The notes under the pieces: generated by a model
Database searches by the model: none
What the model saw: the letters and a program-made list of their open reading frames with translations, nothing else
Told to the model about the DNA's origin: nothing
Made by a program: the position numbers and the translations under genes
Shown: in pieces, positions 1,390 through 51,412 of the stretch
Numbering within the stretch: position 1 is the first letter of the stretch
Layout of the letters: each line of letters starts with the position of its first letter
Origin: Wickerhamiella versatilis
Taxonomy: Eukaryota
NCBI GenBank assembly: GCA_030867685.1
Contig: JAQOWU010000008.1
Location: 1,426,001 to 1,490,000 of the forward strand
Direction of reading: 5' to 3'
Length of the DNA: 64,000 nt

Positions 1390-3393
1390 ATGCCTATGGA
1401 CAGGATCTTCGTGAAGAGATTGGTGCTTCGGGCACTTGTAGGCAAAGATGCTTGGTTTCGCAGCATTCCTCAGCCAGTAAATATTAGTTTTTCAATCCAA
1501 AAATCCCTGAAAGGGCCGGGAGTTCGTGATGACATTGAAGGTAGTGTGGACTATGATATGATATCTCAGAAGATTCAGAACATTTTGGAGAAGAATCATC
1601 ATTCATCTATTTTGAACGCTGCTAATTCAGTCGTTTCAGAGCTTCCTCCTCGATCTATTGTTCAATTGTCCATGCCAAAGGCAGTTCTTCGGGCGAAAGA
1701 GATTGAGGTGGAGCTACCTAGCAACTTGCTTACGATTCGTGGACTGGTGGTTGGTTGTATTGTGGGACTCAATTCTGTTGAGCGTGAACACAAACAAAAT
1801 GTGGTTGTAGACGTTGAACTAAGTCCAATCCCGGATGACCCACACTCAGTAGTTGAGAGTCTCGTCCAGAAAATAGAGCAGAGCTCATTCCTCACCGTTG
1901 AAGCGCTCTCCGAATTCCTTGCTTCATTCGTAATTCGGTCCAATATTGGAAATAAAGTGAAGGTACGAGCTTGTAAGCCGAGTGCTCTAGACTTGGCGGA
2001 ATTTGCCGGAGTAGAAGTGTGTCGTGACCAAGCAAATTCAAAATATGACGACTTTGTGTATATTGCCTTCGGCTCCAATGTTGGAGACAGTGTTGATGTC
2101 ATTAGAAATTCGATCCATGAGCTCAGTAAACGTGGTATCGATGTTGTGAGCACCTCTCGACTATACGAGTCTGCCCCTATGTACTATCAAAACCAGCCCC
2201 CTTTCATAAATGGGGTCTTTTGCTGCTCTACTGATTTAAGTCCACATGATTTGTTGAGGGCTTTGAAAGACGTTGAGTACAAAGTATTCGGGCGTGACGT
2301 CTCCACCGAAAGAAACGGTCCAAGATCTCTGGATTTGGACATATTACTGTATAAAGGACAGTATATCCTAGAGAGCGATTTGATTATACCCCACAATGAT
2401 CTGAAGAATCGCTCATTCGTGCTGAAGCCCCTAAGTGATGTTGCCCCACACATTCAGATTGATGGTTGTAGTGTCGAAGATCATCTTAAAGAGCTCCCTA
2501 CCTCCACTAGCGATCAATCCTCGTCGTCTCTAACTACCTTGTCTCCATTGAAACATGGCAATTTTGCAGCCTCCGCGACAGATGTTATGGCTATTATCAA
2601 TGCCACCCCTGACTCTTTCAGTGATGGTGGTAAGACACATTCAGTGGGTATATTGGAAACTGCTAGGCGTTGTGTTGCTGAGGGAGCGACTATACTTGAT
2701 GTCGGTGGACTTTCAACCCGGCCAGGGTCAGTAGCTTGTTCTATAGAGGAAGAGACCAAAAGAGTACTTGAAGTTGTGGAATCTCTACGCAAACTTCCAG
2801 AATTTGATAGGATTCCAATCTCCGTTGATACTTATCGAAGCGAGGTCGCATCTGCAGCTCTTGCTGCAGGGGCAGATATAGTAAACGATGTTTTTGCAGG
2901 TATGCAGGACCCCAAGATCTTAGATCTTGTAGCCTCCACGGGTGTACCAATCATTATGATGCACTCCCGTGGCGATCCTTCGAATATGAAAACACTGACA
3001 GACTACCCTGAGGGAGTCATAAAAGGAGTAGCCACAGAACTAGCTGTCCGTGTTCGTGAGGCAGAATCTAAAGGTATTTGTCGGTGGCAAATATTCCTTG
3101 ATCCCGGTCTCGGCTTTGCTAAGACGCCTCAGCAGGATGCAGAATTACTTTCTCACCTCTCATCGGTTTCGTCACATGAACCTATACTCTCCGGTCTACC
3201 TTGGCTGGTTGGCCCTAGTCGTAAGAGCTTTATTGGAGCCATAACGAATGTTAAGAACCCTACAGAGCGTGTTCCTGGAACAATTGCCGCTGTCACTTGT
3301 TCCGTTCAACAGGGTGCAGCAATTGTTAGAGTTCATGATGTGGGAGCCGCCAAGCAAGCAACAATGGTAGCCGACGCTTTTTGGAGAAGTTGA
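1390..3393 (+). CDS. FOL1: Trifunctional folate synthesis protein (DHNA x2, HPPK, DHPS)
   Basis: Two FolB-like domains, HPPK motifs (YIAFGSNVG, NGPRSLDLDILLY, PH) and DHPS motifs (INATPDSFSDGG, STRPG, DPGLGFAK, SRKSF, VRVHDV). Start is uncertain (ATGs at 1372, 1390, 1396). Confidence 0.95.
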   Translation: MPMDRIFVKRLVLRALVGKDAWFRSIPQPVNISFSIQKSLKGPGVRDDIEGSVDYDMISQKIQNILEKNHHSSILNAANSVVSELPPRSIVQLSMPKAVLRAKEIEVELPSNLLTIRGLVVGCIVGLNSVEREHKQNVVVDVELSPIPDDPHSVVESLVQKIEQSSFLTVEALSEFLASFVIRSNIGNKVKVRACKPSALDLAEFAGVEVCRDQANSKYDDFVYIAFGSNVGDSVDVIRNSIHELSKRGIDVVSTSRLYESAPMYYQNQPPFINGVFCCSTDLSPHDLLRALKDVEYKVFGRDVSTERNGPRSLDLDILLYKGQYILESDLIIPHNDLKNRSFVLKPLSDVAPHIQIDGCSVEDHLKELPTSTSDQSSSSLTTLSPLKHGNFAASATDVMAIINATPDSFSDGGKTHSVGILETARRCVAEGATILDVGGLSTRPGSVACSIEEETKRVLEVVESLRKLPEFDRIPISVDTYRSEVASAALAAGADIVNDVFAGMQDPKILDLVASTGVPIIMMHSRGDPSNMKTLTDYPEGVIKGVATELAVRVREAESKGICRWQIFLDPGLGFAKTPQQDAELLSHLSSVSSHEPILSGLPWLVGPSRKSFIGAITNVKNPTERVPGTIAAVTCSVQQGAAIVRVHDVGAAKQATMVADAFWRS

Positions 3394-8514: not shown

Positions 8515-11500
8515 CTATTGATTGATTGCTTGTTGCATGTAGTTCTGTGTATCAGATTGCAACTGCGAAGCTGAATCAGACTCCGCATTTGATGTGTTCG
8601 GTTCTCCTTTGCCTCTAATTTCCATGGGAATCTCAAGGTCTTCGATCTTGTTTAAACGTGCTTGCAAAGGTCTCATTGACTGCTGAGCAGCTAGAAGAAC
8701 ATCACGCCGTAGGACTCGTTTGGATGATTGTGATTGATTTGGAGAAGAATCAAAAGTCTTGCGTTCCTCCAGTAGCATCCGCAGATAAAGGCAGATTACA
8801 AGGTCATCTGGGGCAGAAGGTGGACCTTGGCCATTGTTTAATCTTTTGATTTCCAAGGCGTAATGCAATGCCAATACCCAGGGTTGCCAAATAGGGGACT
8901 CAGATTGACCCAGTTCCTTCAATTGTACCTCAATTTTTCGTTTGAGCACGTCAAACTCGGCACTGTTAAGTGAGAAGATTTCTCGATCACTAAATCGCGG
9001 CAAAAAACCTATGACATCCCTGATCAATGAGACGCATCGGCTGCAGATATATTCCCAAACGATTTTGCTATCATACATGGCGGGAAATCGTCGGAACTTT
9101 CTCAAAAGCATAAGAAGACCTTTATCATCTTTAGACCTGAACATTAGATCTGCTAAATATTTGACATATTCAGACATATAAACGAGACGTTGTCCAGGTC
9201 GTTCTAAATCTGTACGCCAAATCTGTAGAGGCTTTGTTGACTTAGGACCAACAAGATTCATCATCTCCAGCCGTGCACTATTGATATCGCCTTGATGTTC
9301 GTATATCTTAGCCAGATAGTAATGCGGTCTATGAAGCCACTTGCGTTTTTCGACAAGCTTTTTCAGGGCTCTAATAGCCGTCTCATCAACAGTGTCACCG
9401 CCATCAGCAAATGAAACGCTTTGAATATAGTTTTTAGCTTCTTCGGACGTTATTTTACCCTCATGATAGTAAAATGTGGAAAGTGTTACTATACATTGAC
9501 TTGCCTCTGGCATCGGGTCAGTCCCTGCGTCGCAACGCACAACGGAGGAGTAAATTGCTTGTTTTAGAACATCGTGTGGGGGTAAGCCCAGAGCAAACCC
9601 AATTTTAGCCAGGAGCCACTCAACAGACCAGTCAGACTGAAACTTCAATGAATGTTCAAGTGAGCATATAGCCAATCGCAGGCAAAGTTTGCGTGAAGCT
9701 CTGGGCGGCATACTTTCACTTATCGTTGTGTTATCACTTGCTACCCAAGGTAGAACTGGTCTGAAATAGTCAAGGGGGCGCTCGTTGAGTGGCGAAGTTA
9801 CGCTGAGCCATAGTAAACGACCAAAATGAGACCACACACCTGGCACTAGTGATTTGCTAAATCGTTCAGGAAGGCTAGCCTTCCCTGGTCTCCGAAGACA
9901 GGACACAGCATATGCTGCGGTCACAAGTGCATGATGAGACCACTGTCCAGTAATGGAATCTGGTTCATACACTGCTACATGTTCACTGATAAGATCATAA
10001 GTCTGGGAAAGCGCGAACCAAGATTCGAAGCGCAAAGGCACCTGGCCAAGATCTAACTCAAAAAACTTCACCGCATCCTGTAGTTCTTCCACTTTTATTG
10101 CTTGTGTTTGACGGGCTCTAGATTTAAAGTGAGTGAGCTGAATCCAGCCTAATGTAAACCATAGATCATTTTGTTGTTCACTCCTGCCCCAGGTAGGAAC
10201 AAGATACCCTTGCCATGCTTTCTTGAAAAATTCACTTGATAGCTTTTCATGTTCTATTGTGTGAGATACTCGCAAAGCCAAATCATTTGATTTCGGCGGT
10301 ACACCTAAGGCTTCCTGAAACTGGGTCAAAACTTGACGTACATCTGTACGCATTAGGGAGGTTCCTACATTGCGTCTTCCCAATATTAAACCCAGTGTGA
10401 ATGGTAAAAGTTTTTGTGCTTCTTCTAAGGTTAGCGTTTTGGCCTTCGTATGATGGTCGACAACTGTGCCCCCTTCAACAACAGCAGAGAGGTTAAAGCC
10501 GTAGCAGCAATGGAGGCATTGAGCCATATCCAGATCAGAACCATGCCAGGAAAGCTTAAGAAGTTCTGAAATGTGGAATTTTACCAGTATGTTATCGCAT
10601 AGCATACAGTAGCCCTGAACCCCAAGACGCTCGTGGACTATACTTAAGAGGTCGTTCCAGATATCTGGAGTGGTATCACGAGGTAGTAGCTCTCGATATG
10701 CGATCAAGAATAGCGTCCACCAATAGATAACCAGCTCCCTGAATTTGACCGCTGCACTTTCCCATGAAGGATGTTGGGACGCCTGGATCACATTGTCGTT
10801 TACAGCGCTATCGAACAGTAAAAATGCTTGCAATGTTGGGAGTAGCCGAAGAGTTTGGTGTAAGAGTTTGCTTGCGACCTCGAAGGTGACCAGCTCTCTA
10901 GATTCTGTTAGCAAAAGTATCAGTCGCCGAGAAACATTATGTGCAACACTCAAGGTATTTAGTGAAATAGTTGGAGCATCAAGAGCAGTATCCATGATTT
11001 CCAGCAAGCCCTCAAGTGTTTTAAGAGGCTCATTAATGCTTTCGTATCTGTCCAGCAGTAAGTACCAGAGATTTAAACGAAATTGAGGAGATGCAGTATT
11101 AAGAAACTGGGCAATAGCCGCATGCTCAGGAATATCTGTAGGATGTTGATCTGGCATTAGTATTGCTTCAAGAAGTGAAGTGTTCTCATGTAGATTGTCT
11201 TCACTTGACTCAAAAATCTTAGAAAACACCGATGCAGCTTTAAACTTCGAAATTTGAGTGTGACAACTGGTTCTACTGAGAGTAGGTAAGTATGCATAAT
11301 TTGGAAATTCTATCTCAAACTCATCGACATGTTCAAGTATTGTTTCAAACCTTTGCATACTTATATCTGGATTTAATTCGTGCATTTGATCAACCAAAGC
11401 ACTAACCCATGCATGTCGGAGTACTATGAGTTTGTCGACAAGTAGATCACTCGATAAGACGCGCCATCTATTCAAACTATCCAGCAATTCGAGAGCATGA

Positions 11501-13041
11501 GCTCGTCTTTTAGGTGATTCGCCAAGCGTTCTCATTTCACGTTCGGCACCTATGTAGAAGTTGGCAAACAATTCATACACGCCCTCAGCCAGTTGTGGGT
11601 AAGACCTTGCTATTGTCACCAGAAGTGGCTCAATTTGATAGACAAGAGACTGGAGGGAACCAAACAAGGATTCAGGCCAATGGTGGGATAGTATCAAGGA
11701 ATTTACCCCAAATATACGCACTATGAGCTCCACCCTGACTTCCTGAAAATGTGATCCTGTCACTGTAGCCAAGAAGTCACCCAAACCACGTGCATCCGGT
11801 AACTCACTACACGAAGTTGGGTTAACATCTGCGCCACGGGCAGCAAAATCCAGCATCTGCATGACCGGTTGTTCTGCGGAGAAATCAAGATTTGAGTCGA
11901 TAGATAGGAATTGATCAGCCTGCTGATCATCCCATTGTTCAAATGTCTCCCGGTGGAGACGGAACTGATTTTCAACTAGGTTCTCAAAACCCAGGTCCTT
12001 AATCGGAAGCAGGTCCAGGTACTGTTTCATTTGATCGAAAAAAGTGAAATCATGGAGAAAAAAGCCGCTAGGAAAGCTATCCTGTGCACGAAGCTGTCTA
12101 TTTCGAGGTTCCTCAGAGGTGGATCGTTCTTCCACATGTTCCGGATTAGGTGTGGGTTTTGGGGAATCTATCACCATTTCCGCTGGCTCCTCTTCAGCCT
12201 CGTGCTCTGTTTCAGCCTCGGAATCTGATACGTTACCAATAGGGACGGCTTCGCCATGTGGTGCTGTGAACACAACGCTGTACGCGCTTTTTTCGGCAAA
12301 CGAGTAAGGATCTATCCCGAGCCTTTTCTGACGACTCCCAACACCAAGTGATCGCAGGGCATCTTCCAGTCCATATATAACAGATGCCCAGGTCTTTGAA
12401 GTGATTTGAACCTCTAATTTTTCATTTTCAGAACAGGTTGATTTATTATCATACGGAAACCGGTCAAGCAGGGCATTGGGAATCTTTGCATTATCTTCAA
12501 TTCGCATAAGTAGAACTTTGTATGCATTAAGCAAATTATGACCACTTGGACCTATCAAATGTGCTGAGTTGGTGCTGCGCGACTTCTCGTATAATGATAA
12601 AACCCCATCGCTTCGACTCAACAGTTCCTCAAGACCCAGTCTTGCTATATGTTGCCAGCCCAAAGAGAGAGCTATCTGAGACAATGTAATAATTGTGGAT
12701 TCATCTTTGGAGTCGTCTAATTCAAGTGAAGAAACTAGCATGGGCACAACCTCTTTGAGATCACCACCATTTTCTGCTTCCAAAATGGCCCAATTTTTTA
12801 AGGCGACAGCTTTAAGCTTGCGACCAGCGGGTGGAGCATTCGACTCTGCAGCGCGTCTCATGACACCCATTTCAAATAAATCCTGATATCGGTTCCTTGC
12901 GTCATTGACATCGCCATTTCCCTGTAATTTCAGAATGAAACAGAAATCTTTAATAGCCTCTTCCAGCTGGTGCTCCAGAGTCAGCAACTCCTTCTCAGCT
13001 GCCAAATCAGTTTCATATGAATTGAGAGCCCGAAAGGGCAT
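8515..13041 (-). CDS. HIR3: HIR complex subunit Hir3 (CABIN1 ortholog)
   Basis: ~1500-aa helical/TPR protein with N-terminal FRALN...EHQLEEA, LHCCYG, RFESWFAL, WLHRPHYYLA and IWRTDLERPG. First ATG at 13041; neighbours match the S. cerevisiae HIR3 block. Confidence 0.9.
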   Translation of the reverse strand: MPFRALNSYETDLAAEKELLTLEHQLEEAIKDFCFILKLQGNGDVNDARNRYQDLFEMGVMRRAAESNAPPAGRKLKAVALKNWAILEAENGGDLKEVVPMLVSSLELDDSKDESTIITLSQIALSLGWQHIARLGLEELLSRSDGVLSLYEKSRSTNSAHLIGPSGHNLLNAYKVLLMRIEDNAKIPNALLDRFPYDNKSTCSENEKLEVQITSKTWASVIYGLEDALRSLGVGSRQKRLGIDPYSFAEKSAYSVVFTAPHGEAVPIGNVSDSEAETEHEAEEEPAEMVIDSPKPTPNPEHVEERSTSEEPRNRQLRAQDSFPSGFFLHDFTFFDQMKQYLDLLPIKDLGFENLVENQFRLHRETFEQWDDQQADQFLSIDSNLDFSAEQPVMQMLDFAARGADVNPTSCSELPDARGLGDFLATVTGSHFQEVRVELIVRIFGVNSLILSHHWPESLFGSLQSLVYQIEPLLVTIARSYPQLAEGVYELFANFYIGAEREMRTLGESPKRRAHALELLDSLNRWRVLSSDLLVDKLIVLRHAWVSALVDQMHELNPDISMQRFETILEHVDEFEIEFPNYAYLPTLSRTSCHTQISKFKAASVFSKIFESSEDNLHENTSLLEAILMPDQHPTDIPEHAAIAQFLNTASPQFRLNLWYLLLDRYESINEPLKTLEGLLEIMDTALDAPTISLNTLSVAHNVSRRLILLLTESRELVTFEVASKLLHQTLRLLPTLQAFLLFDSAVNDNVIQASQHPSWESAAVKFRELVIYWWTLFLIAYRELLPRDTTPDIWNDLLSIVHERLGVQGYCMLCDNILVKFHISELLKLSWHGSDLDMAQCLHCCYGFNLSAVVEGGTVVDHHTKAKTLTLEEAQKLLPFTLGLILGRRNVGTSLMRTDVRQVLTQFQEALGVPPKSNDLALRVSHTIEHEKLSSEFFKKAWQGYLVPTWGRSEQQNDLWFTLGWIQLTHFKSRARQTQAIKVEELQDAVKFFELDLGQVPLRFESWFALSQTYDLISEHVAVYEPDSITGQWSHHALVTAAYAVSCLRRPGKASLPERFSKSLVPGVWSHFGRLLWLSVTSPLNERPLDYFRPVLPWVASDNTTISESMPPRASRKLCLRLAICSLEHSLKFQSDWSVEWLLAKIGFALGLPPHDVLKQAIYSSVVRCDAGTDPMPEASQCIVTLSTFYYHEGKITSEEAKNYIQSVSFADGGDTVDETAIRALKKLVEKRKWLHRPHYYLAKIYEHQGDINSARLEMMNLVGPKSTKPLQIWRTDLERPGQRLVYMSEYVKYLADLMFRSKDDKGLLMLLRKFRRFPAMYDSKIVWEYICSRCVSLIRDVIGFLPRFSDREIFSLNSAEFDVLKRKIEVQLKELGQSESPIWQPWVLALHYALEIKRLNNGQGPPSAPDDLVICLYLRMLLEERKTFDSSPNQSQSSKRVLRRDVLLAAQQSMRPLQARLNKIEDLEIPMEIRGKGEPNTSNAESDSASQLQSDTQNYMQQAINQ

Positions 13042-19622: not shown

Positions 19623-21083
19623 TCAATTCTGTAAGTTCTGAGAAGAGTAGTCTGCAATCAGAAAAGCAGCATCTAACGCCTGTTCCACGCTTAAGCGTGG
19701 ATCACAGACCGTGTCATATCGAATAGTTAACTCTTCATCCTCAAGATTCTGTGACCCGCCAATGCATTCTGTTACGGGATCGCCAGTAAGCTCTAAGTGA
19801 ACCCCATTAAGTGCTGAATTACACTCCTTGTGAATCGAGAGGGCTGACTTCAATTCATTTATAATATCATCAAAATAACGAGTCTTCAACTTGGTGACTG
19901 GCGACGTCTTGGTATTGCCATGACAAGGGTCGCTCACCCACACTACACGGTGACCTGAGCTTTGTACAGCCCGAATTTGCGGTGGTAATTTGCTGGCAAT
20001 CTTATCAACGCCGTAGCGAGTAATTAGCGTGACGCGCCCTTCGACCTTTTCTGGGTCAACGATATCCAAAAGTCGAACAAGCTCATCAGTATCCATGGAT
20101 GGACCCACCTTAATACCAATCGGATTTGCCAGACCACGGAAAAATTCTACATGTGCACCATCAATTTGGCGCGTGCGATCTCCAATCCAAATGAAGTGCG
20201 CAGATGTGTCATAAAACTTTCCATCACTGTGGGGCCGGGTAAGGCTTTGCTCATATTCTAACATCAAAGCCTCATGACTGGTAAAAAAGTCAACGCCACT
20301 CACTACTTGTGAGCCATGTTCGCCAACTGTGTTCATGAAGCTAAGTCCATCAGAAATACGATTTACTATCGTCTCGTAACGCTCACGGGTACTGTCATGA
20401 TGGACATGGCTAAAATCCCACTTCTGCGGGTTGTGCAGGTTGGCAAATCCTGCATTTAAGGTTGCCCGAACATAATTAAGTGTCGCAGCACTATGAAAAT
20501 ATGCATCAACAAGGCGTTGTGGATCAGGAGTACGATTCGTTGCCTCAAAGCCGTTGACGTTGTCACCGCGAAAACTCAATACTTCACCAATCCCCTCGAC
20601 AACTTCTGTCTGTTTAGAGCGTGGCTTTGCGTATTGACCTGCCAAACGGCCTATGCGCAGAATGGGCTTTTTCATTCCCCAAACTAGAACCAAAGACATT
20701 TGTAGAATTACCTTGAGCTTGGCCTCAATCTGATCCTGATTGCAATAAGCGAAGAGCTCTGCACAGTCCCCGCCTTGAAGAACGAATCTTTCACCCCTGC
20801 TAGCCTCAGACAGTTGTGCCTGGAGCTTCTGGATTTCATAGGGATGAACTAGTGGGGGAAGAATCTCTAGTTTTGTGAGTGCATTCTCCAACCCAATAGT
20901 GTCTTCATAGATCACATCTTGAGTCACCGGCTTTGTTTGCCAAGATGCCGGATCCCAGTCATCGAATTTGGGTCTCTCAGTGAGTTCATTGGATTTAGAT
21001 CTCACAATAGCAGTACTTTTCGCACTTTCTGATGGTACTGTCTGGGGCGGATCCTGAAGAATTACTCGATGCCGATGATTCAT
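19623..21083 (-). CDS. Class II (plant/AroA-II type) DAHP synthase
   Basis: LQGGDCAELF, GRLAGQYAKPRS, FRGDNVNG, WIGDRTRQ, PIGIKVGP, DPCHGNT, GVHLELTG and CDPRL are class II signatures. Confidence 0.95.
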   Translation of the reverse strand: MNHRHRVILQDPPQTVPSESAKSTAIVRSKSNELTERPKFDDWDPASWQTKPVTQDVIYEDTIGLENALTKLEILPPLVHPYEIQKLQAQLSEASRGERFVLQGGDCAELFAYCNQDQIEAKLKVILQMSLVLVWGMKKPILRIGRLAGQYAKPRSKQTEVVEGIGEVLSFRGDNVNGFEATNRTPDPQRLVDAYFHSAATLNYVRATLNAGFANLHNPQKWDFSHVHHDSTRERYETIVNRISDGLSFMNTVGEHGSQVVSGVDFFTSHEALMLEYEQSLTRPHSDGKFYDTSAHFIWIGDRTRQIDGAHVEFFRGLANPIGIKVGPSMDTDELVRLLDIVDPEKVEGRVTLITRYGVDKIASKLPPQIRAVQSSGHRVVWVSDPCHGNTKTSPVTKLKTRYFDDIINELKSALSIHKECNSALNGVHLELTGDPVTECIGGSQNLEDEELTIRYDTVCDPRLSVEQALDAAFLIADYSSQNLQN

Positions 21084-30334: not shown

Positions 30335-30590
30335 TATCCTTCTGCAGGTTAGTAATAACTGACGTAATTATCACATTAACAATTGCAAAGCTTAATTTTG
30401 CTCCAGGCGGAAGTGACACAAAACACACCTATCGTCATAACTGAGCACATTGAAAACTATAGTTATACAGAAAAACAAATAATCCCTCAATACGTGCATA
30501 CTCATAATAATTATTTACTTCGCTTTTTTTTTCGTTCCTTTGGTACTTTTGCTGCGAACCAGGCCCCTGCGGTAAATTTCTACATACAAA

Positions 30591-31847
30591 TCAAGATAAA
30601 AAGTGACGAGAACGTTCAGTACTCGGCGACCTCTCGATAAAAATCTGATTCAAAACTCTACTGCGCGATGATGAGCGAACGCTTGATGATGAAGAACGGC
30701 GGTGTCTCCTTGCTGTCTCCGGATCCAATGTAGAGCCCGAGACACGAGCAACAAAATTCAAAATGTCTGTCAAAGACACAACGCCCACTAGCCGACCACT
30801 GGTAATATCAGTCGGATTGATAGGCTGGTTTTCCTCGGTAATCCACAAGCGATGCGACCTGGTAGCAACCAGTTTGGCGACTACACGATATAGCCGAGTT
30901 CGTCTGTGCACATAGAATACAGGCACACTTTCATTACCTCCTTCCCGAATTCCTCGCGAATCAAGAACAACCGTAAGGAAATGCTTACACGATTCATGGA
31001 GGAGTCCTATCTGCCAGGCACGAGTCAATAGACTGACATCCACAACACTGATATTTCCCAGCAAGTTGAAGTCACGATCAACAACAGCAACACTGCTTAC
31101 GGCTTGGTCATGCATTAATTCCAGTGCTTCAATAACAGGAGCATCCCCTTGAACAGTCACCATATCACCATATGTTCCTATTTGCAGCTCCTCCAGCGAA
31201 CGATCGTATAGTTGCTCAACCGCTGGAAATCTTCGGATATGGCTATTAACATAGGTTACAAGGCGACGCTGGGAGAGCATGCCGATAACATGGCTAGGTG
31301 CATCAACACCAGGCACTACAGCTATCCGATGCACACCCGACCCAAATTTCTGAATAGCCGCAGAGAGGGGGGTATCCGCAGTCATACGTACGAATGGGTC
31401 ACGAGCACCGAATTGAGCGGCAACTTCAACTGGAGCTGGCTTCCCCATACGTGCACGCTTTATCGCTTGCTCAAATTCTGCCGCCACAGGCTCTATAACT
31501 GTGAGATGACCAAGCACTAAAAGCAAATATCCGTTGAGATCCGCGAAGTCAAAGGTATCATAGATTTGTCCATCACGCACTACCGGGATACAGGTCAGGT
31601 CCTTTTCATGCATTAGATTGAAAGCCTGCTCAACCGTCGTATGACAATCAATCGACACCAATTTCGAGGAGTCAACCAACTCCCCGACCGTGGATACTGG
31701 CGTTGCTGTTCGAGTACTCAATGGTGTCGAAGCAACACTAGCAGTAGACACTGCATCACTGTCACTCTCGGATGTTACATTACGTGTGTCTGAAGCCACA
31801 ATACGTGGCACCTCGCGAGCACCAGACAGTGACCTGTCTCGTGTCAT
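30591..31847 (-). CDS. SDS23: CBS-domain protein Sds23/Sds24
   Basis: TFDFADLNGYLL, FGSGVHRIAV, SQRRLV, GNISVVDV, AKLVATRSHRLWI, GVVSLTDIL. Confidence 0.9.
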   Translation of the reverse strand: MTRDRSLSGAREVPRIVASDTRNVTSESDSDAVSTASVASTPLSTRTATPVSTVGELVDSSKLVSIDCHTTVEQAFNLMHEKDLTCIPVVRDGQIYDTFDFADLNGYLLLVLGHLTVIEPVAAEFEQAIKRARMGKPAPVEVAAQFGARDPFVRMTADTPLSAAIQKFGSGVHRIAVVPGVDAPSHVIGMLSQRRLVTYVNSHIRRFPAVEQLYDRSLEELQIGTYGDMVTVQGDAPVIEALELMHDQAVSSVAVVDRDFNLLGNISVVDVSLLTRAWQIGLLHESCKHFLTVVLDSRGIREGGNESVPVFYVHRRTRLYRVVAKLVATRSHRLWITEENQPINPTDITSGRLVGVVSLTDILNFVARVSGSTLDPETARRHRRSSSSSVRSSSRSRVLNQIFIERSPSTERSRHFLS

Positions 31848-32131
31848 GTGTAAGTGTGCAGAGAGTTAGCTAATTCGTGTACGAGACGTTGGGCCAAACA
31901 ACGTCTTTGTCATATGATTTGTGGCGCAATGTTACGTAGCAACGGTATATTGATGCTACTAGAATCTTTTTATCCAGCCTATAAATATCAGCTTTCAGAC
32001 TGTATATAACTTGTTTTAACCGCAAGACTATTAGCTGTGCTTCCATTAACCTTGGTATACCCCCTACAAGTAATTAAATATGTTTGTCATCAAGCTTTAG
32101 CGTGAAGGTGTATCCGCAAAGCAATTCAAGC

Positions 32132-33508
32132 ATGAAGCGTTCCCGTCAAGATGAGGTTGATCCTGCTCCTCCAGGTCAGCTATTTTACCATTTGAAGGAT
32201 GACAAGGAGGTTTTTGACTTAGTAGAAGCAGAAGCTCACCGACAAGCACATTGGCTGAATCTAATTGCCTCCGAAAATTACGCACCTCTAGCTGTATTAG
32301 AAGCTGAAGGATCGATAATGATGAACAAGTACTCAGAGGGATACCCCGGTATCCGTCATTATGGAGGAAATGCTATAATTGATATGATGGAACTCTTGTG
32401 CCAAAAACGAGCATTAGAATTATTTCACCTTTCTCCAGATGATTGGTGCGTGAATGTGCAAACATTAGCAGGTACTTATGCGAATGCACAGGTTTATCAC
32501 GCGTTGATGCGACCACATGACCGTCTTATGGGACTTAGCTTAAAGCACGGGGGGCATATGTCATTTGGTTACCAGACCGAGAAACTCAAGGTCAGTGCTA
32601 TAAGTGAGTATTACGATACTCTACCGTATGAAATTGACTTGGAAAGTGGGAGGATCGACTATGACGATTTAGAGAGATTTGCCACACGTTTCAGGCCCAA
32701 GGTAATCGTTGCAGGGGCCTCAAGCTATTGCCGCTTGATCAATTACAAGCGCCTCAAAGAAATTTGCATAAATGTTGGAGCATATTTGGTTGTGGATATG
32801 GCACATATCGCTGGCCAAGTTTCTGCAGGCTTATTACCGTCACCTTTCGAAACAGCCGACGTCGTAACCTGTGCTACACAAAAAACACTTAGAGGGCCAC
32901 GTGCCGCTATGATCTTTTGTCAAAAAAATCTGGAAGCCTCTATAAATTTTTCAGTCTTTCCTTCGTCCCAAGGCGGTCCTCATAATCATACTATAGCTGC
33001 GTTGACCGTGGCATTGGGACTTGCCAACACGCAAGAATTTCGTGATTATCAAAAACAGTTAATGAAAAATGCAGCAGCGCTTGAGGATGCATTGCTAGAA
33101 CGTGGATTTTCCCTCGTTAGTGGAGGTACAGACATTCACATGCTCGTCGTCTCCCTGACAGACAAAGGCGTCGATGGTTCTCGGGTTAGCGCAGCTTGCG
33201 ATCGTAGTCATATCGCCATCAGCGCTACGGCTGTTCCTGGTGATAAATGGAATTTACCTCGGGCAGTACGTATTGGTACCACACCAATGACCACCAGGGG
33301 TTTCAAGGAACAGGACTTTGTGCGGGTTGCGGAACTGATCAGTAGAATAATTCGTATATCTGTGCAAGTCCAAGGCGCGTTGCCTAATCATGCAAATAAA
33401 TTGCGCGACTTCAAAGCTGCACTCAGTGCGAGGCCAGAATTCGACGAAATCATCCGTGAGATATCCGAATGGACGGGACCTCTACCCCTTCCTGGAAAAG
33501 AAATATGA
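32132..33508 (+). CDS. Divergent serine hydroxymethyltransferase-family PLP enzyme (Shm2-like paralog)
   Basis: LIASENY, NKYSEGYPG, DMAHIAG, KTLRGPR and QGGPHNHTI are present, but several signature motifs are altered. First in-frame ATG at 32132. Confidence 0.9.
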   Translation: MKRSRQDEVDPAPPGQLFYHLKDDKEVFDLVEAEAHRQAHWLNLIASENYAPLAVLEAEGSIMMNKYSEGYPGIRHYGGNAIIDMMELLCQKRALELFHLSPDDWCVNVQTLAGTYANAQVYHALMRPHDRLMGLSLKHGGHMSFGYQTEKLKVSAISEYYDTLPYEIDLESGRIDYDDLERFATRFRPKVIVAGASSYCRLINYKRLKEICINVGAYLVVDMAHIAGQVSAGLLPSPFETADVVTCATQKTLRGPRAAMIFCQKNLEASINFSVFPSSQGGPHNHTIAALTVALGLANTQEFRDYQKQLMKNAAALEDALLERGFSLVSGGTDIHMLVVSLTDKGVDGSRVSAACDRSHIAISATAVPGDKWNLPRAVRIGTTPMTTRGFKEQDFVRVAELISRIIRISVQVQGALPNHANKLRDFKAALSARPEFDEIIREISEWTGPLPLPGKEI

Positions 33509-33653
33509 ATTTTTATTTGAAATTTGCGTCATAATGCTAACAAGTCAGCAAGCCCTCTATAATCCAGCCTAAAAATTACACAAAATTCAGCCAGACAAAA
33601 TAATTCCAAAAATGATTGTCTTTATTCCTACACTAGAGAGATCCATACAATAA

Positions 33654-36600
33654 CTAATTCATTTGTTCGATAGATAGATTTGCTGTAGTCCCTCCACCAA
33701 AGGAGGCCGTCTTCTCGCCATTACTCAACTCCACCGAGCTTTGACCAATATCAGAGTGCCGACCCAATGACTTTATAGACAAAAGCTTTAGACCAAGTGT
33801 CGACTCAGGTAAAGCCTTGACTTCAAAAGTTTCACCAACTTCAACCTCACCTTCCTCTAACTTCAATGACTTGGATTTAAATACTTCTTTCTCTTTTTTG
33901 CCAAGAGTAAAGCATCTAATTTGAACTGTCTCACCCTTCGAAACACCCTGTATATTTTCTACAGAGATGAGATATTTCTTCGTGTTCGCATCTTCGTCAG
34001 TGCTGGCTAAAGATGCCTTGTCAGAGCCACCGAATTTCTTGAATAATGATCCACCATGGCCAACCACGGCGCCAGCGGCACCACCAGCTACCCCAGCACC
34101 AGCACCAGCTGCACCAAGAGCCATTTTTCCACCACCCATTGCCAATTTACCTGCGCCACCTGCGACCTTCTGCACTGATTCCAGTCCTATGATGTCCTCG
34201 CCCTTCTTCTTTTGTAGGAATCCTGGTGCAAATCGCATCCGCAAGTAAAGAACACCACCAACCTCCTTCTCATGTTTGACCTCCTTATTTGGCTTCAGGT
34301 TCAAAAGATTCACAGCATAATCTTTCCATTCCAAAGGTTCAAGTTCCGAAATATTGAATTTGTGACCACCAAGCAAATCATCTGGGTTACCCATATCCCA
34401 GTCATAAACCATTGCCTTGAAAAAGGTATTATGTGCATCAGCAATATCAAATGAAAATCTTTCATTCCACTCTGGATTCAAAGTTTCCTTCTTCACCTCC
34501 GAGGAATAAATACGGTCATCGTCATTGTTGACGTATATTCTCACATATGGATCCGAAAGCCCTGAACGATCCGCAGCCGGAACATTCTCCGCGCGCAATA
34601 ACTCCACTTCAACCGTACCGGTGTTCGTCATGTCCTCATCCTGGTCAACGACGAGGTCTGGCAACGGGAACATCCTACACTGGACTTCTAACGTGCTATT
34701 TCCGATCTTGTAAGATTGAGGCTTCGTGAATGCTTCACGCATCATCTCGAAACAGCCAACAATCTTCTCACTGATCGGTGCACTTCCATCATCACTTTCG
34801 CATAGGATAAACCTCAGATTGCTAAAGTTCAACTGACCGGAAACGAAATCACCAGAGTCACCTTCAACCTCGACACGACGTCCTCTGGCCGGGGGACTAA
34901 CATATATAGGTAGTTCAATGTTATTGGCCAAAACAACAAGTCGACAACCGATAGGAACATTAGAAAGTGACAAGAACGAAACAGCGAAAACGCCACTATT
35001 GAATTCAAGCTGCTTCTCGACCGGCATGTCAATACCCGCAAGTGCCAAACGATTCTCGCGCAATTCCAGTTCATTCCTCTTATTCTCATCAAGCTTCTTA
35101 CCGTCGACGGCCTCCTTGCGAATGCGGTCAATTTCGACCTTCTCACGACACATACGATCTCTTTCATCAGGAGATGCTACAGGGATATTCGGATAGAACT
35201 CCATAGTGTAGGTGAGATTACCTTTAGGACCCCTACCAGGCATCACAAGCTTGTTCGTAAAGTGCTTGTCACTAATAAACACCTTATAGTTTCCTTCCTC
35301 ATTCTTTTGAATGATGGAAGACAAATCAACTTTGAAAGCACCAAGAGACCTATCTTTACCGCGTCTCTCAACATCCATTACTTCAAACGTAACATCTTGC
35401 AATTCATTCTGCACAGGAATGTACTTAATTTCGTTCCACTGAGGAGAAAGCTCACCCTTGAAAAATTCGGTACGAGCAACCTCTCTACGCCCAAGCAATA
35501 CCTTGCAATATGGATCAACCTTTCCAACATGTTCCAAATTGCGGAGATCGTCTGCAGATACTATGCGCAACCTCAGAACACCGATGGGCTCAATGTATGA
35601 ATCCACAGTAGATCCTAGAACCGTGGCGGGCTTCCACTGCGTTTCAATGTTTATCTCACCAGCGCCATTCTCTAGCTCGAACCAGTTGATTCCCTTCTCG
35701 TTGTCCACGAGCAGTTTCATCAATCGAGTCTTATATATTCCAACAACGGGCGAATTTCCTTTACGATTATCACGGATGCGGAATACCACTTGTGCTGTGA
35801 TTTTATTGGAAAATATATGTTCTTTACCATAGCCCCACTCAGGGTCATTAGTGCCCTTCGTCAACTTGGTAGAATCCAATAGCTCACCATCCACTTCAAT
35901 TTCACAATATGGACTTAACTTCGCAACCTTAGACTTCTTTGGGTCCAGACTTCTAGCCGATATGACACGAAGGCCTAAGATTCCAGACTTCGAATCACCA
36001 GAAGATTCACTCTCATCGCCATCTTCAGAGGTGGCCATTTGAACCGGAGAAAATTTCGCGAATAATTCAAGTTTTCCAGAAGGTCTCCCTCCACTGATGA
36101 TAGTTTGGGTGACAGCATCGGGAGAGAGCTTATCCACACGTTGTGCAGTTGATCCAATACTGCGATCAAACGCGCTTTCCTGGAAATCCATAACTTCTAC
36201 GATCACAGACTCAGACAGATTGGTAATGATAGCATGCAGATATTCATTCCACACAGGTTCATTCGTATTTTGCTTGATCTTCGTGCGACAGAGTTCCTTC
36301 TTGTCCTTATTGAGCAACCTAACATAAGCATCCACTCGGCCATCTGCGTCAATTTTCAGGTTATGCGCACGGTTAATCCGAACGGAAAGAACACCAACGC
36401 CACTCATGACACCAACACCAGCCATGAGCTGTTCAACGTTAACCTGGAAGGCATTAGGCGAATAAAACATCGGCCCAAGATTTGCATCCACCATCTCCTT
36501 GATGAACTTCGATAATCCTGGGATAATGTTGATATCAAACCCGAGCTTTTCACCGCCAATTGGTTTAAGAACAAAATCGATCTGAGGAGGCTCCAAAAAC

Positions 36601-38929: not shown

Positions 38930-39412
38930 TCACAAATCTACTTTTCTGTTCTCACCACAAAGTTCTCGTAAATGCTGGCGTTTTTCTGGCGGCATAGGTA
39001 AGGTTTCCATTAAGGATTCTGTTAGCAAGCCATCCAGGTAATGTTGTGTTGAATTTTCGTCAAAATCAGAGTCAGTGTCAACTGTTTCGTTAAAATCGAA
39101 CGTCATATCAGGTGGGTTCGAACCTGGAGTTAAAGCATTTCCACTACTAGGCTGCTCAGAAGCATCCATGTCCATGACATGCTCCTTGCTAGACCCGAAG
39201 TCGTAAAATGGTGTGCTTTTGGGTCCGCTTGACGCGTCGTCACACTCGTGACTCGCTGAATCTATGTGGTTTTGCCCAGGGAAATCTGATGGGTTTAGTG
39301 ACTCACTTGCAAAGTTCAATCTTTCGGGAGTAATCGGATGTATATTGCCATGTTTTGGAGGCTGAAGGGGTGTATAGCTCGGGCTGCTGCTTGGAACTTC
39401 CCCAGACGGCAT
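38930..39412 (-). CDS. Hypothetical acidic, Ser/Pro-rich protein (~160 aa)
   Basis: ATG at 39412 avoids overlap with NEO1; the ORF fills the gap; low-complexity sequence with a short C-terminal helical segment; no family recognised. Confidence 0.55.
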   Translation of the reverse strand: MPSGEVPSSSPSYTPLQPPKHGNIHPITPERLNFASESLNPSDFPGQNHIDSASHECDDASSGPKSTPFYDFGSSKEHVMDMDASEQPSSGNALTPGSNPPDMTFDFNETVDTDSDFDENSTQHYLDGLLTESLMETLPMPPEKRQHLRELCGENRKVDL

Positions 39413-39518
39413 TCTGCCGACTAGTTGCCAGCTATTAGTAATAAAATGAGATTTATGTGATGAATTAACCGTGCTATATTTATATGAGAACCATAGGCTA
39501 GTAAATCGTAAAATGAGG

Positions 39519-42506
39519 CTAAACTTGGACTTTAGCATAACTCGGAGGTTTGATCTTTCGGTTAATTGCCTTAGCAAAGAATGGTGGCAGGACTGCAACT
39601 GCCGTAATAGCGGCTGTTTTCCAATAGAAGGACAAATCTTTTAGAGTGCTGAGATCAAAATAATCGCCTAGGAAGGGAACGCTGGCAATAAAAACTCCTG
39701 CAGTAACTAGGAGAGATACCAACATAATGATATTCCAGGTACGAATCTCAATTGCTACCATGCTCAATTCTGTAGCGATTAATGCACTGAAGGATACCAT
39801 TACCATAAGCTTGGATAGGACCTCTGTAAGGCCAACAAATAATTGACTTAACCCCTGAACAACACAACCTTGATAAAGAGAAACCAGGAACCACGCAGCA
39901 AATGATCTGTATGATAATGATCTCCCAGTTTTAAGCTCCTGGTATAATTCGGGATACATGTGAGCCACCCGCTCGTCTACATCAAAATCAGTAACAAGTG
40001 CAAATACGGGGGCCATTGTATAAATGGTCGCGTATCCTACCATCAACCATCCTTGGTACAAAGCTAGGGGCTCAAAATGAGATGAAATGCTATAAACAGC
40101 TTGAGCCACTGATATCAGTAGACCTCGGTGGATTATTACCTGGGAGAGTTTTGCTGAGCGCTTGTATGAGTTCCTTCCGTGCCAAAGAAGAAGCCGGGTG
40201 AGATGGCAAAACTGCGTTACACTGAAGTCAGCAGCTAAAGATGCCTGTCGTCCTTCCTTACCAACTATACCAACCCCCACATCCGCTGCCTGGATCATCG
40301 AAACGTCGTTTCCACCATCACCTATTCCGCATACACGCTTTTTGGCAGTTGTTTTTACTATTTTTGTCAAATCAGCCTTTTGCTGAGGGGTACAGCGACA
40401 AGCGACAACAACGGGAAGTTTGAGAGCAATCTCTGCGAATTGCGCTTTAAGATTGTCCAAAAAGAAAGCTAACGATCCACCATCAACTAGCAGACAGGAT
40501 TCAGGAACCTGAGATAAGAAGTCTAGGTGCTGATGGGCAGCGGTGATACTAGAGAGTCCTTGCACAGTATGAATGAATTGGCCACGACTCACTAATCGTG
40601 CGCTGACCGCAACGCACCGAGCTGTTTCAACTTTATCCCCAGTAAGCATCCAAACGCGGACACCAGCGTGTCGTAGAAGTTCTAAGCTGGGCTTAACGTC
40701 ACGCTGTAATTTGTCTTCCACCCCTGTTATTCCTAGAACTTCCAGGTCATGCTCCAGTTGTCGAGCAACAACTTGAGAAAGTGCCTGGTCTCTACCATGC
40801 ATTAGAAGGCCTGCTTTAGAGTATTCATCTGAGAAACTATCGAGCTCAGCAGGTTCAAGTTTCTTTCGTGCTACAACCAAGGTGCGCAATCCCTCTCGAG
40901 CCATATTACCCACCTCCTCATCAAGCCACTCTGTGGGGGTGACTAGTTGGCCCATGACAGTATCTGCCCCTTTACAATAAAACCATACTTCTTTACTTTC
41001 TTGAGAACGAACGATTATTCCCATTCTTTTCGAATCTGAATTAAATGGAAAAAGATAAAGGATCTCATAAGTCACTTCTTTACCAGTGGCTTTGTGACTT
41101 AATGTCATTGACATCCGATCCCTTTGAATCAGTTCAATACCCATTTGTGCTGTCCAAGCAACAATTGCTATCTCATCAGGAGACACCGCCTGGAATCCTC
41201 CTTCGTCCGTTGGTGTTACCGAATGACAAACGGCTAAACATGTAACTAAGTTCCACACGCGCTGTGCAGATTCTCGCTTAGACTTCCTTCCCTGCGTGAG
41301 TCCGGCGACTCCTTCAGCTACAATTGTGGCGACGTCCTCCATAGAGTCACCATAGAAAGCCATTTGTCCAATGTGTATTTTCTTCAGGTCCATATCGTTC
41401 TGCGTAATAGTACCTGTTTTATCCGTCAAAAGGTAATCTATCCTTCCAAGATCCTCTGGGATTGTCGATGTGCGAACTATAGTGTCCGGAATGGCCTTAT
41501 CATGTTCGATTTGATGAGCATATACTGTCTTAGCCATATCCAAGTTTACACGAAGCGAAACAGGGATGATAGTGCTGAAAAGGATAAGAAACCGCATCAA
41601 ATCCACATACCAATATTTGCCGAATCCATTAGCTGCCACCAATACAAAACTCAATCCAAAGACTGCCACACAGAGGATCTTGGATATGCTGTTTACTTCT
41701 AATTCAAGTAGGCCCACCTTGTTTCGTGAAGGCGATAGGTTCATGGCCATGCGAGTCTCTATACCAGTGTAAGCCACTATTCCTTCAACGGTTCCAGCGG
41801 CAACAACTGTATTGGCCCACATGGTATTATCCACAGACAAGGCAGCGGATACACCGTTGTTCTCTATAGTACCAACAAAATGGTGAAGTGACTTATCCGG
41901 TGGGGAAACCTCTAGCTCCAGGTCCTCCCATACTCCACTTTGTTGGGTGAGGGGGCATGCCTGACGAAGCTTCCAGTCCGTTTCACCATCAAGTTGGTCC
42001 GTTCGTATGAAACTTTCTCCTGAGGCTTCACTTGACTTGAGCACAACCACATCAGCTGGTACTCTCTCATTCGTATGGAGCACAACTATGTCGCCTACTC
42101 TCAAGTCCTGGGACTTTGCTTTGCCACCACCTTTAAGTTCATAGATTTCAGAGTTGGCCTCAGCATCCCTTCGGCGTCGTTGAATATCATCCCATGCCTC
42201 CTTTGCCATAGTTACACTGAGAACGAAGGCAAGTGGGACAATATAAGAGCTGAGGTATCCAATGCGTAAAGCAGGCCATGCCTGGCTTAATGCAACAATA
42301 AGGAAATAAAGGTTGAAGAAAAACTTAAACTGCTCGTATAATATGATAGGCACGAACGTCACTGCATTATATTTGGCATTAGATATAGCATTTGATGGAA
42401 ACTTATATCCACTTTGGCGCTGTGTATCTGGGCCGAATCGACGAACACGACCTGAGCTTGTGGGGGACAAAGGCATTGTCATTAATGGAATTCCCTGATC
42501 GCCCAT
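39519..42506 (-). CDS. NEO1: P4-ATPase phospholipid flippase Neo1
   Basis: NAISNAKYN, DQLDGETDWKLR, IIPVSLRVNLD, phosphorylation motif DKTGT, GDGGNDVSMIQ, C-terminal PPSYAKV. Likely ATG at 42506. Confidence 0.95.
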   Translation of the reverse strand: MGDQGIPLMTMPLSPTSSGRVRRFGPDTQRQSGYKFPSNAISNAKYNAVTFVPIILYEQFKFFFNLYFLIVALSQAWPALRIGYLSSYIVPLAFVLSVTMAKEAWDDIQRRRRDAEANSEIYELKGGGKAKSQDLRVGDIVVLHTNERVPADVVVLKSSEASGESFIRTDQLDGETDWKLRQACPLTQQSGVWEDLELEVSPPDKSLHHFVGTIENNGVSAALSVDNTMWANTVVAAGTVEGIVAYTGIETRMAMNLSPSRNKVGLLELEVNSISKILCVAVFGLSFVLVAANGFGKYWYVDLMRFLILFSTIIPVSLRVNLDMAKTVYAHQIEHDKAIPDTIVRTSTIPEDLGRIDYLLTDKTGTITQNDMDLKKIHIGQMAFYGDSMEDVATIVAEGVAGLTQGRKSKRESAQRVWNLVTCLAVCHSVTPTDEGGFQAVSPDEIAIVAWTAQMGIELIQRDRMSMTLSHKATGKEVTYEILYLFPFNSDSKRMGIIVRSQESKEVWFYCKGADTVMGQLVTPTEWLDEEVGNMAREGLRTLVVARKKLEPAELDSFSDEYSKAGLLMHGRDQALSQVVARQLEHDLEVLGITGVEDKLQRDVKPSLELLRHAGVRVWMLTGDKVETARCVAVSARLVSRGQFIHTVQGLSSITAAHQHLDFLSQVPESCLLVDGGSLAFFLDNLKAQFAEIALKLPVVVACRCTPQQKADLTKIVKTTAKKRVCGIGDGGNDVSMIQAADVGVGIVGKEGRQASLAADFSVTQFCHLTRLLLWHGRNSYKRSAKLSQVIIHRGLLISVAQAVYSISSHFEPLALYQGWLMVGYATIYTMAPVFALVTDFDVDERVAHMYPELYQELKTGRSLSYRSFAAWFLVSLYQGCVVQGLSQLFVGLTEVLSKLMVMVSFSALIATELSMVAIEIRTWNIIMLVSLLVTAGVFIASVPFLGDYFDLSTLKDLSFYWKTAAITAVAVLPPFFAKAINRKIKPPSYAKVQV

Positions 42507-50749: not shown

Positions 50750-51412
50750 ATGTCGACAGAGAAATTGATCAATGCTATTAAAACTGAACAGTATAACAAA
50801 GGAGCCCTTGATGTAGATGAGGTTGATCGTAATCCAGCCGTACAATTCCAGAAATGGTTCAAGGAAGCCCAAGATGCTAAAATCACACTCCCCGAAGCAC
50901 TCAATCTTGCCACAGCCGAATTGCCAAGTGGCCGGGTTTCTAACCGGGTAGTTCTCCTCAAAGAATTGGACAAGGATGGACGTCTTGTAATTTATTCGAA
51001 CTGGGGGTATAGTCGCAAAGGAAATGATCTGAAGACGAATTCGTGGGTTTCCCTCTGCTTTTGGTGGAAGGATCTTGAACGGCAGGTCCGTGTCGAGGGC
51101 CGTGCCCAACGGCTTTCACTTGAAGAGTCCAGTGAGTATTTTCACCAAAGGCCACGTGGCTCGCAACTTGGTGCATGGGCCTCTCACCAAAGTCAACCAG
51201 TACCATCCCGCGAGGCACTAGAACAAGCCGCTCATGCTGCTGAAGAAAAGTATGGGGATTCAGATATTATACCCTGTCCCCCTTACTGGGGTGGTGTCGC
51301 CATAAGGCCAGAGCGATGGGAGTTCTGGCAGGGCCGACCCAGCCGACTTCACGACCGTCTAGAATACGTGGCTGATCAGGACAGTTGGAAAATAAACCGT
51401 ATCTGCCCATAA
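50750..51412 (+). CDS. PDX3: Pyridoxamine 5'-phosphate oxidase
   Basis: RVVLLKE, SRKG, RQVRVEG, YFHQRPRGSQLGAWAS.QS, WGG, EFWQGRPSRLHDR. Confidence 0.96.
   Translation: MSTEKLINAIKTEQYNKGALDVDEVDRNPAVQFQKWFKEAQDAKITLPEALNLATAELPSGRVSNRVVLLKELDKDGRLVIYSNWGYSRKGNDLKTNSWVSLCFWWKDLERQVRVEGRAQRLSLEESSEYFHQRPRGSQLGAWASHQSQPVPSREALEQAAHAAEEKYGDSDIIPCPPYWGGVAIRPERWEFWQGRPSRLHDRLEYVADQDSWKINRICP

Follow-up and report, generated by a model that had tools for sequence, protein, structure and literature searches.

A divergent paralog of serine hydroxymethyltransferase (SHMT) is encoded in a 64,000-nucleotide stretch of Wickerhamiella versatilis DNA (GenBank assembly GCA_030867685.1, contig JAQOWU010000008.1, positions 1,426,001 to 1,490,000 of the forward strand; this whole stretch is called the window). 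SHMT is among the most conserved enzymes of central metabolism. In the window protein and in ten related protein clusters, the site for pyridoxal phosphate (PLP) and the amino acid is invariant, while the folate-binding side chains, the gating loop and the flap have been replaced in 11/11. Remodelled folate-site and flap motifs and a retained PLP lysine had been noted for the window protein in an initial annotation of the sequence. The comparisons are best explained by a lineage-specific, Shm2-derived paralog that appears to be under purifying selection and is transcribed in Wickerhamiella/Starmerella-type yeasts. Its tentatively proposed function, held with slightly less than even confidence, is that of a folate-independent PLP enzyme, probably aldolase-like. 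The gene is as follows.

32132..33508 (+): divergent SHMT paralog open reading frame (ORF), intact, 458 aa, stop codon included (ORF list, PF00464 match, RNA-seq)

The ORF is uninterrupted under the standard code over its 458 codons, as initially annotated. It matched the Pfam SHMT family PF00464 end to end (E 8e-158, profile positions 4-399 of 399), and its best solved relative in a PDB sequence search was the yeast-type SHMT 5z0y_A (E 1.2e-158). An AlphaFold2 (AF2) monomer model had a predicted local distance difference test (pLDDT) score of 81.8 and template modelling (TM) scores of 0.85-0.91 against solved SHMTs. The window protein is a member of the SHMT family of fold-type I PLP enzymes. 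The GLY1-type threonine aldolase family PF01212 (Beta_elim_lyase) was unmatched in the Pfam scan, which returned PF00464 and PF00155 only, so that any threonine-aldolase role would be analogous and not homologous.

Four RNA-seq raw-read runs (X21-X24) with the same species label, from two samples and two studies, were aligned to 30400-34400. The ORF was covered in every bin, with a summed depth of about 75-160 in its interior in X21-X23 and about 33-48 in X24. Depth was about 200-620 across the ORF of the neighbouring CBS-domain gene in X21-X23, and about 0-10 in the upstream intergenic bin 31874-32007. Transcription of the SHMT-like ORF, on which the initial annotation had made its case conditional, was thus found in both samples. 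No splice joints were seen in the reads, and hence the gene has no intron. The RNA reads carried seven single-base differences in the CBS ORF, one past the CBS stop at 30587 and none in the SHMT-like ORF; the latter result, obtained in two samples, excludes a sequencing artefact.

The best 120 matches to the window protein, which comprised 11 clade members and 109 canonical Shm2 proteins, were used as the sequence set, and 19 sequences including eight named canonical Shm2 proteins were aligned separately (alignment A1). Conserved columns were defined as the 284 columns with at least 95% conservation across the 109 canonical Shm2. Canonical proteins had a median of one departure from these (maximum 11), compared with 77 in the window protein and 69-89 among its ten relatives. 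The divergence of the window protein is far beyond chance. At least nine of the 11 clade members were altered at 61/284 columns, and 153/284 were kept in all members. Twenty columns were fixed to one new residue in 11/11: S41W, Y76H, L143M, H145F, I154V, L186R, T196A, A198S, A212C, T248A, S252T, V310L, S335I, L339V, N364S, N366T, G377R, G378A, P384T and Y402L.

The motif changes first noticed in the window sequence were all recovered in these alignments (RYYGG to RHYGG, LSGSPAN to LAGTYAN, GLDL to GLSL, GGHLSHG to GGHMSFG, TTTTHK to TCATQK, NKN to SAT and GAPA to GTTP), with TCATQK at residues 246-251, that is 32867-32884, where it had been placed. So were the retained Lys251, YSEGYP, DMAH and Arg380 of VRIG, and the 15-residue gap after Lys265 where K. 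phaffii Shm2 carries the flap. The description of the starting consensus as near-invariant has to be amended at one point: the changes themselves stand, but the D of GLDL is not invariant, Saccharomycetaceae Shm2 in A1 carrying F, Y or H.

The ten further protein clusters (P0002-P0011) were 60-87% identical to the window protein, shared its changes and were listed ahead of the canonical Shm2 proteins, which levelled off at 53-58%. Starting instead from P0011, the member that diverges most, the search gave the same eleven and no others among the 120 matches listed. A maximum-likelihood tree built from the sequence set of 120 (quick search, LG+C20 PMSF) showed the eleven as monophyletic with a support of 100 in the approximate likelihood ratio test (SH-aLRT). 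The clade has a stem of 3.09 substitutions per site, whereas the median tip is 0.089. The clade attached inside Saccharomycotina Shm2, after the Lipomyces group, at a fork left unresolved between the clade, Nadsonia, Dipodascales-type proteins and the remainder; its exact branching point is uncertain because such long branches are hard to place. Nesting inside budding-yeast Shm2 agrees with the cytosolic ancestry that had been read from the C-terminus, where ANKLRDFK resembles the ANKLKDFK of cytosolic Shm2.

Identity within the clade had a median of 73%. The closest SHMT-like protein, from a sister species, was 87% identical, and the importin encoded 13 kb away in the window was 85% identical to its best match. 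Among named species this importin was nearest to those of Wickerhamiella sorbophila (48%) and Trichomonascus (47%). The DNA of the window also occurs in food-fermentation metagenomes. A metagenome scan for ortholog DNA gave seven loci, all 39-43% identical, with no close relative among them. No clade-like representative was found when the clade profile was compared with 1.84 billion representatives (best match 624 bits, a Sporothrix cytosolic SHMT cluster), and a search of the ESM Atlas returned SHMT clusters only.

A decaying, functionless duplicate might be suspected from the many departures at conserved positions. This explanation is effectively refuted: ORFs are intact in 11 clusters, 20 new residues are fixed in 11/11 while 153/284 conserved columns are kept in all members, the gene is transcribed, and its conservation between sister species matches that of the importin. 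The conserved clade and its transcription are those of a functional, diverged SHMT derivative and not of a pseudogene, which is also how the gene had first been interpreted.

One entry among the matches stood apart. P0241, a 751-aa protein labelled 'serine hydroxymethyltransferase 2 [Artemisia annua]', matched P0011 with 678 bits, more than true clade members reached, at an identity of 49%, and may be a fused or duplicated model.

Active site of the paralog

Residue roles were taken from PMC11323337 (T. thermophilus and human SHMT2 structures) and positions were mapped by motif register. N-terminal of the flap, the register offsets were self-consistent (+16 for T. thermophilus residues 51-61, +20 for 117-125 and +25 for 197-226). 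T. thermophilus Asn342 and Arg358 were paired with Thr366 and Arg380 via the NKN and VRIG motifs and the differing length of the gating loop.

Ser47, Tyr67, Glu69, Tyr77, Gly114, Asn118, His142, Ser197, Asp222, His225, Lys251, Arg257 and Arg380 were invariant in 11/11. Among these, Ser47 and Arg380 bind the carboxylate, Tyr67 and Gly114 the phosphate, His142 stacks on PLP, Ser197 contacts O3', Asp222 holds N1 and Lys251 forms the Schiff base (PMC11323337). Judged from the alignments, the PLP-binding set (Lys251, Asp222, His142, Gly114/Thr115, Ser197) is invariant or conservatively replaced in all eleven.

On the folate side, the canonical Tyr at position 76 (T. thermophilus Tyr60) stacks on the p-aminobenzoyl ring, the Leu at position 143 (Leu123) makes a CH-pi contact with the same ring, and the Asn at position 366 (Asn342, or Asn410 in human SHMT2) bridges pterin N1 and N8, while the gating loop closes on folate (PMC11323337); the Asn is also named as a folate contact in PMC4257618 and PMC9570156. 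The His at position 145 (His125) partners the Asp that holds PLP N1 (PMC11323337). In human SHMT1 the flap contacts RNA and the polyglutamate tail (bioRxiv 10.1101/2023.03.17.532973), and roles in maintaining the tetramer, in PLP binding and in THF (tetrahydrofolate) affinity are ascribed to it (bioRxiv 10.1101/2023.03.17.532973; PMC11323337). The corresponding elements of the window gene are listed below.

32354..32368 (+): RHYGG, residues 75-79; His76 in place of the Tyr that stacks on the p-aminobenzoyl ring, Y76H in 11/11 against Tyr in 109/109 canonical
32465..32485 (+): LAGTYAN, residues 112-118, loop at the PLP phosphate, with Gly114 and Asn118 unchanged and Ala113 and Thr115 each in place of Ser
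32549..32569 (+): GGHMSFG, residues 140-146; PLP-stacking His142 kept, L143M and H145F in 11/11
32867..32884 (+): TCATQK, residues 246-251; Schiff-base Lys251 kept, Thr to Ala248 in 11/11, His to Gln250 in 10/11
32924..32929 (+): 15-residue flap deletion between Lys265 and Asn266; 15 contiguous columns empty in 11/11 and filled in >90% of 109 canonical
33221..33271 (+): S364-A-T366...W373...R377-A378-V-R380; pterin Asn replaced, gating loop remodelled, Arg380 kept

The folate-contact side chains of canonical THF-dependent SHMT (EC 2.1.2.1), Asn, Tyr and Leu, are therefore replaced by Thr366, His76 and Met143 in all eleven members. The segment from the pterin Asn through the gating loop carries N364S, N366T, G377R and G378A in 11/11 and K365A and S373W in 10/11, and the loop is one residue shorter. 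Changes proximal to PLP are His to Phe145, Thr to Ala248 and, near the phosphate, His to Gln250. For the tetramer, the residues listed for human SHMT1 (His135, Arg137, Glu168; bioRxiv 10.1101/2023.03.17.532973) were compared: His129 and Arg131 are kept, Glu is changed to Asp162 in 9/11 and the flap is absent in 11/11.

Residues at key positions were also counted in 150 representatives of diverse SHMT clusters.

Position 76: usually Tyr (109) or Phe (15); the clade residue His in 2
Position 145: usually His (137); the clade residue Phe in 0/144 with a residue
Position 248: usually Thr (140); the clade residue Ala in 0/146 with a residue
Position 250: usually His (129); the clade residue Gln in 6
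Position 366: usually Asn (95/125 with a residue); the clade residue Thr in 4

The combined set of clade changes occurred in 0/150 of these representatives. Between the alignment anchors, the flap region of the clade has length 8, which is the bacterial-type length, against 21-23 in canonical eukaryotic proteins. The folate-binding Asn has been replaced independently elsewhere (P0300, P0353, P0301): a trematode (Calicophoron) sequence has S-A-V where the clade has S-A-T, Cryptosporidium has Ser, and a plant SHM6-like sequence has Ile.

Genomic setting and proposed function

Whether the gene is an additional SHMT was approached through its position. In a one-to-one ortholog table for S. batistae (PMC12983215), SHM1 is SBAT_0A07320 and SHM2 is SBAT_0A24860, which sits between TEL2 and SNC2; orthologs of both are given for nearly all of about 29 Starmerella genomes and for W. 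sorbophila. The same source places SBAT_0A21930 directly after a block GTB1-RMT2-ERG11-REV1-MNR2-SDS24. The table gives no ortholog of this orphan for its ten model/acid-tolerant yeasts or for Saprochaete ingens and Sugiyamaella lignohabitans; an ortholog is given for W. sorbophila and for each Starmerella genome covered, and in nearly all it adjoins SDS24 (PMC12983215). The order in the window is glucosidase-II-beta, an ORF of unknown type, a P450, a deacetylase, a CorA-type protein, a CBS-pair protein and the SHMT-like gene, the yeast gene names of the neighbours being assigned from Pfam family and order. The window is thus collinear with the GTB1...SDS24 block, with the SHMT-like gene in the slot of the orphan, and is not the TEL2-SHM2-SNC2 locus. 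This synteny with the Starmerella table suggests an extra, lineage-specific paralog as the most economical reading.

The gene could instead be the sole cytosolic SHMT of the organism, a fast-evolving SHM2 ortholog at a new locus. The lineage is indeed very divergent, as the 48% identity of the importin to its nearest named relative illustrates, and a canonical SHMT of the same organism was not encountered, no whole-genome search having been made. Such an ortholog is nevertheless very unlikely, given the stem of 3.09 against a median tip of 0.089, the 69-89 departures at conserved columns against at most 11 in canonical proteins (other long-branched yeasts included), and a window that matches the SDS24 block, where the next gene has no S. 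cerevisiae ortholog, and not the S. batistae TEL2-SHM2-SNC2 locus. Assignment to the yeast SHM2 orthogroup was rejected for the same stem length and the same difference of locus.

A FOL1-like trifunctional folate-synthesis gene (FolB-HPPK-pterin-binding) lies at 1372-3393 (+), 30 kb from the SHMT-like gene, and the organism therefore makes folate. GLY1 (YEL046C) has no entry in the S. batistae one-to-one table (PMC12983215), where SHM1, SHM2, AGX1, GCV1, GCV2, MIS1, THR4, CHA1, CAT2, HOM6 and FOL1, taken as controls, have one entry each; ADE3 also has no entry there, related genes being present. The missing GLY1 entry makes a threonine or allo-threonine aldolase role a lead.

The N-terminus of the protein was also compared within the clade.

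32132..32152 (+): N-terminal MKRSRQD; MKR conserved, with a linker of varying length behind it in orthologs, putative nuclear localization signal

MKR was kept in 10/10 members with an N-terminus in A1 and K-R-x-R in 7/10; P0011 has KRRK. P0008 and P0009 are without the basic doublet after MKR, and a second basic patch, KKP, lies downstream. The linker is about 10 residues long at its shortest and reaches about 190 in P0005. The basic motif, which had been likened to a nuclear localization signal, fits a targeting signal, and together with the variable linker it suggests, speculatively, targeting that may be to the nucleus.

The protein keeps all that an SHMT requires to bind PLP, to convert an alpha-amino acid into its external aldimine and to perform the acid-base steps at C-beta; the THF-holding side chains have been exchanged for a new and equally conserved set. 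The SHMT dimer is most likely still formed, since the residues that reach the active site of the partner (T. thermophilus Tyr51, Glu53 and Tyr60; PMC11323337) are kept or specifically replaced (Tyr67, Glu69 and His76). In the proposed function, retro-aldol or aldol-type C-alpha-C-beta chemistry would proceed without THF, the substrate being either a beta-hydroxy-alpha-amino acid or glycine together with an aldehyde, and the rebuilt pocket (His76, Trp41, Trp373, Arg377, Phe145) would hold a new side chain or co-substrate in the place of folate. A threonine or allo-threonine aldolase is a speculative candidate role; hydroxy-trimethyllysine, the example of a substrate given at first, found no support in these data. 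The B. stearothermophilus SHMT mutants N341A and Y60A reportedly lose THF-dependent activity only.

Several points weigh against a folate-independent enzyme. The active-site loops of the monomer model are of low confidence (pLDDT <50). Folate binding may have been weakened and not lost, because His76 could stack, Thr366 could offer a single hydrogen bond and the pterin would be contacted by the backbone as before. Asn366 is not universal (95/125), Cryptosporidium SHMT representatives having Ser. T248A, H250Q and H145F adjoin PLP and may slow catalysis rather than retune it; the E. coli mutants T226A and H228N are said to remain partly active. The extra-copy reading is drawn indirectly, from the ortholog table of relatives, and the SHMT-like gene is equated with SBAT_0A21930 by position alone. 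A second orphan adjoins TCB1 in S. batistae (PMC12983215), and the W. sorbophila ortholog of the orphan was absent from the 120 best matches of either SHMT search. The GLY1 lead comes from the one-to-one table of another species, and such tables can miss duplicated genes.

An SHMT that is altered yet continues to depend on THF, for instance a specialized nuclear isozyme for thymidylate synthesis, is an unlikely alternative. It would bind folate through the backbone and His76/Thr366/Trp373/Arg377, perhaps favouring monoglutamate or some other form of folate. The catalytic residues are all present, among them Glu69, the proposed acid-base catalyst of both reaction types, and pterin contacts are mostly made by the backbone (PMC11323337); the Ser of the representatives annotated as Cryptosporidium SHMT and the conserved basic N-terminus are in line with such an isozyme. 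Set against this, all three folate contacts that depend on particular side chains were changed together with the gating loop and the flap, and these changes then became fixed in 11/11, whereas canonical Shm2 keeps the folate positions in 109/109, and relatives already possess SHM1 and SHM2 orthologs.

A non-catalytic or ligand-sensing regulator or scaffold that binds PLP and an amino acid, comparable to plant MSA1/SHM7 or to SHMT2 in the BRISC complex, is considered rather improbable. MSA1, which is nuclear and without SHM activity in vitro (PMC5021336), provides the precedent, and the N-terminal motif with its variable linker, the T248A and H250Q changes beside the Schiff-base Lys, the loss of the Asp-supporting His in H145F and the missing flap, a contact of RNA and the polyglutamate tail in human SHMT1, would all suit a regulator. 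A pure scaffold would not, however, need the full PLP, carboxylate and acid-base set that is invariant in 11/11, and two His residues that the clade keeps, the PLP-stacking one and that of DxAH, are missing from the plant SHM6-like representative.

Extending the folate-independent, aldolase-like reading, a fuller proposal is offered at low confidence: an undescribed PLP enzyme that would have arisen once in Wickerhamiella/Starmerella-type yeasts by conversion of the Shm2 folate pocket for a new substrate or co-substrate. It may be a folate-independent beta-hydroxy-amino-acid aldolase that took over the supply of glycine from threonine after loss of GLY1, or it may catalyse a reaction new to the SHMT fold, at a site perhaps set by MKR and possibly in the nucleus.

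Expression signals and other features of the window

The 5' region of the gene was described from the mapped reads and from the sequence.

32086..32114 (+): transcription start zone, 18-46 nt before the ATG; read ends pile at 32107 and 32114 (X21-X23), and loose ends bearing an oligonucleotide lie at 32086 and 32089 (X24)
31980-31987 and 32003-32009 (+): two TATA-like elements, tataaata and tatataa, in the 284-bp divergent intergenic region; read from the sequence, putative function

The loose-end sequence at 32086/32089 presumably derives from a template-switch oligo, which it resembles. From the mapped 5' ends, the transcript starts 18-46 nt before the ATG that encodes MKRSR. A short upstream ORF of six codons (ATG at 32080; 32080-32100) begins just upstream of the mapped 5' ends and would for this reason be missing from most transcripts. 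Just downstream of the CBS-domain gene, RNA reads of the other strain or strains contained one or two extra T in the T-run at 30523.

A PDX3-like pyridoxamine-phosphate oxidase gene is located at 50750-51412 (+), 17 kb from the SHMT-like gene. The FOL1-like and PDX3-like genes are both tied to SHMT cofactors, and their nearness is probably a coincidence. A class-II DAHP synthase of 486 aa is encoded at 19623-21083 (-) (PF01474, E 2.8e-190), and may be a transferred or alternative entry enzyme of the shikimate pathway; S. cerevisiae uses the class-I DAHP synthases ARO3/ARO4. A 202-aa ORF at 38930-39538 (-) without a Pfam match overlaps, in another frame, the last 20 bases of a P4-ATPase (flippase) ORF at 39519-42506 (-), and is either a small gene or spurious. 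No Pfam family was matched at E 1e-5 by the ORFs at 8515-13041 (-), of 1508 aa, and 59805-61331 (-), of 508 aa.

Comparison with known systems

Fungal cytosolic Shm2 (e.g. K. phaffii; 5z0y_A) shares with the clade its fold and family, 49-62% identity, the PLP, substrate and acid-base residues, His129 and Arg131, and the ANKL(K/R)DFK C-terminus. The clade differs from it by 69-89/284 departures, by replacement of the folate Tyr, Leu and Asn, by a shorter gating loop with a new Trp and Arg, by absence of the 15-residue flap, by the change of TTTTHK to T(T/C)A(T/A/S)QK, by the new MKR motif and linker, and by another chromosomal context.

The plant nuclear class (Arabidopsis MSA1/SHM7 and SHM6; 7qx8, 7qpe) likewise consists of diverged SHMT paralogs with an N-terminal extension that occur alongside canonical isozymes, and its SHM6-like representative P0301 is also without the folate Asn (Ile). 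In P0301, however, Asn stands in place of the PLP-stacking His and Gln in place of the DxAH His, and the long flap is retained, whereas the clade has both His and no flap. Common descent with the plant SHM6/7 class was rejected: the clade nests in Saccharomycotina Shm2, and its signature residues differ from those of P0301. With the bacterial-type dimeric SHMTs (T. thermophilus, E. coli) the clade shares a flap reduced to a loop of equal length, 8; at the positions where the clade has changed, in contrast, the bacterial enzymes still have Tyr, Leu, His, Thr-His-Lys and Asn.

Folate-independent enzymes of the SHMT fold are represented by the L-threonine transaldolases (ObiH, LipK, fluorothreonine transaldolase) and alpha-methylserine aldolase, which are bacterial and distantly related. 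The likeness drawn to these enzymes is one of concept, in that an SHMT scaffold performs PLP aldol chemistry without THF. An ObiH-type transaldolase was absent among the best 60 of 88 PDB sequence matches, no reference sequence having been compared. A limited literature search found no description of a third yeast SHMT among the papers listed.

The yeasts that carry the paralog are used in food fermentation and biosurfactant production and are known for rewired metabolism. Should the protein be a folate-independent aldolase, it could explain the glycine supply of these yeasts and serve as a biocatalyst for beta-hydroxy amino acids; should it be a nuclear regulator, plant MSA1/SHM7 would have a counterpart in fungi. 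SHMT paralogs with lost or changed folate use are known, and what appears to be undescribed is the combination found in this clade, its fungal origin and its conservation. By keeping the chemistry half of the active site and swapping the folate half, the clade offers a natural experiment in how PLP enzymes gain reactions.

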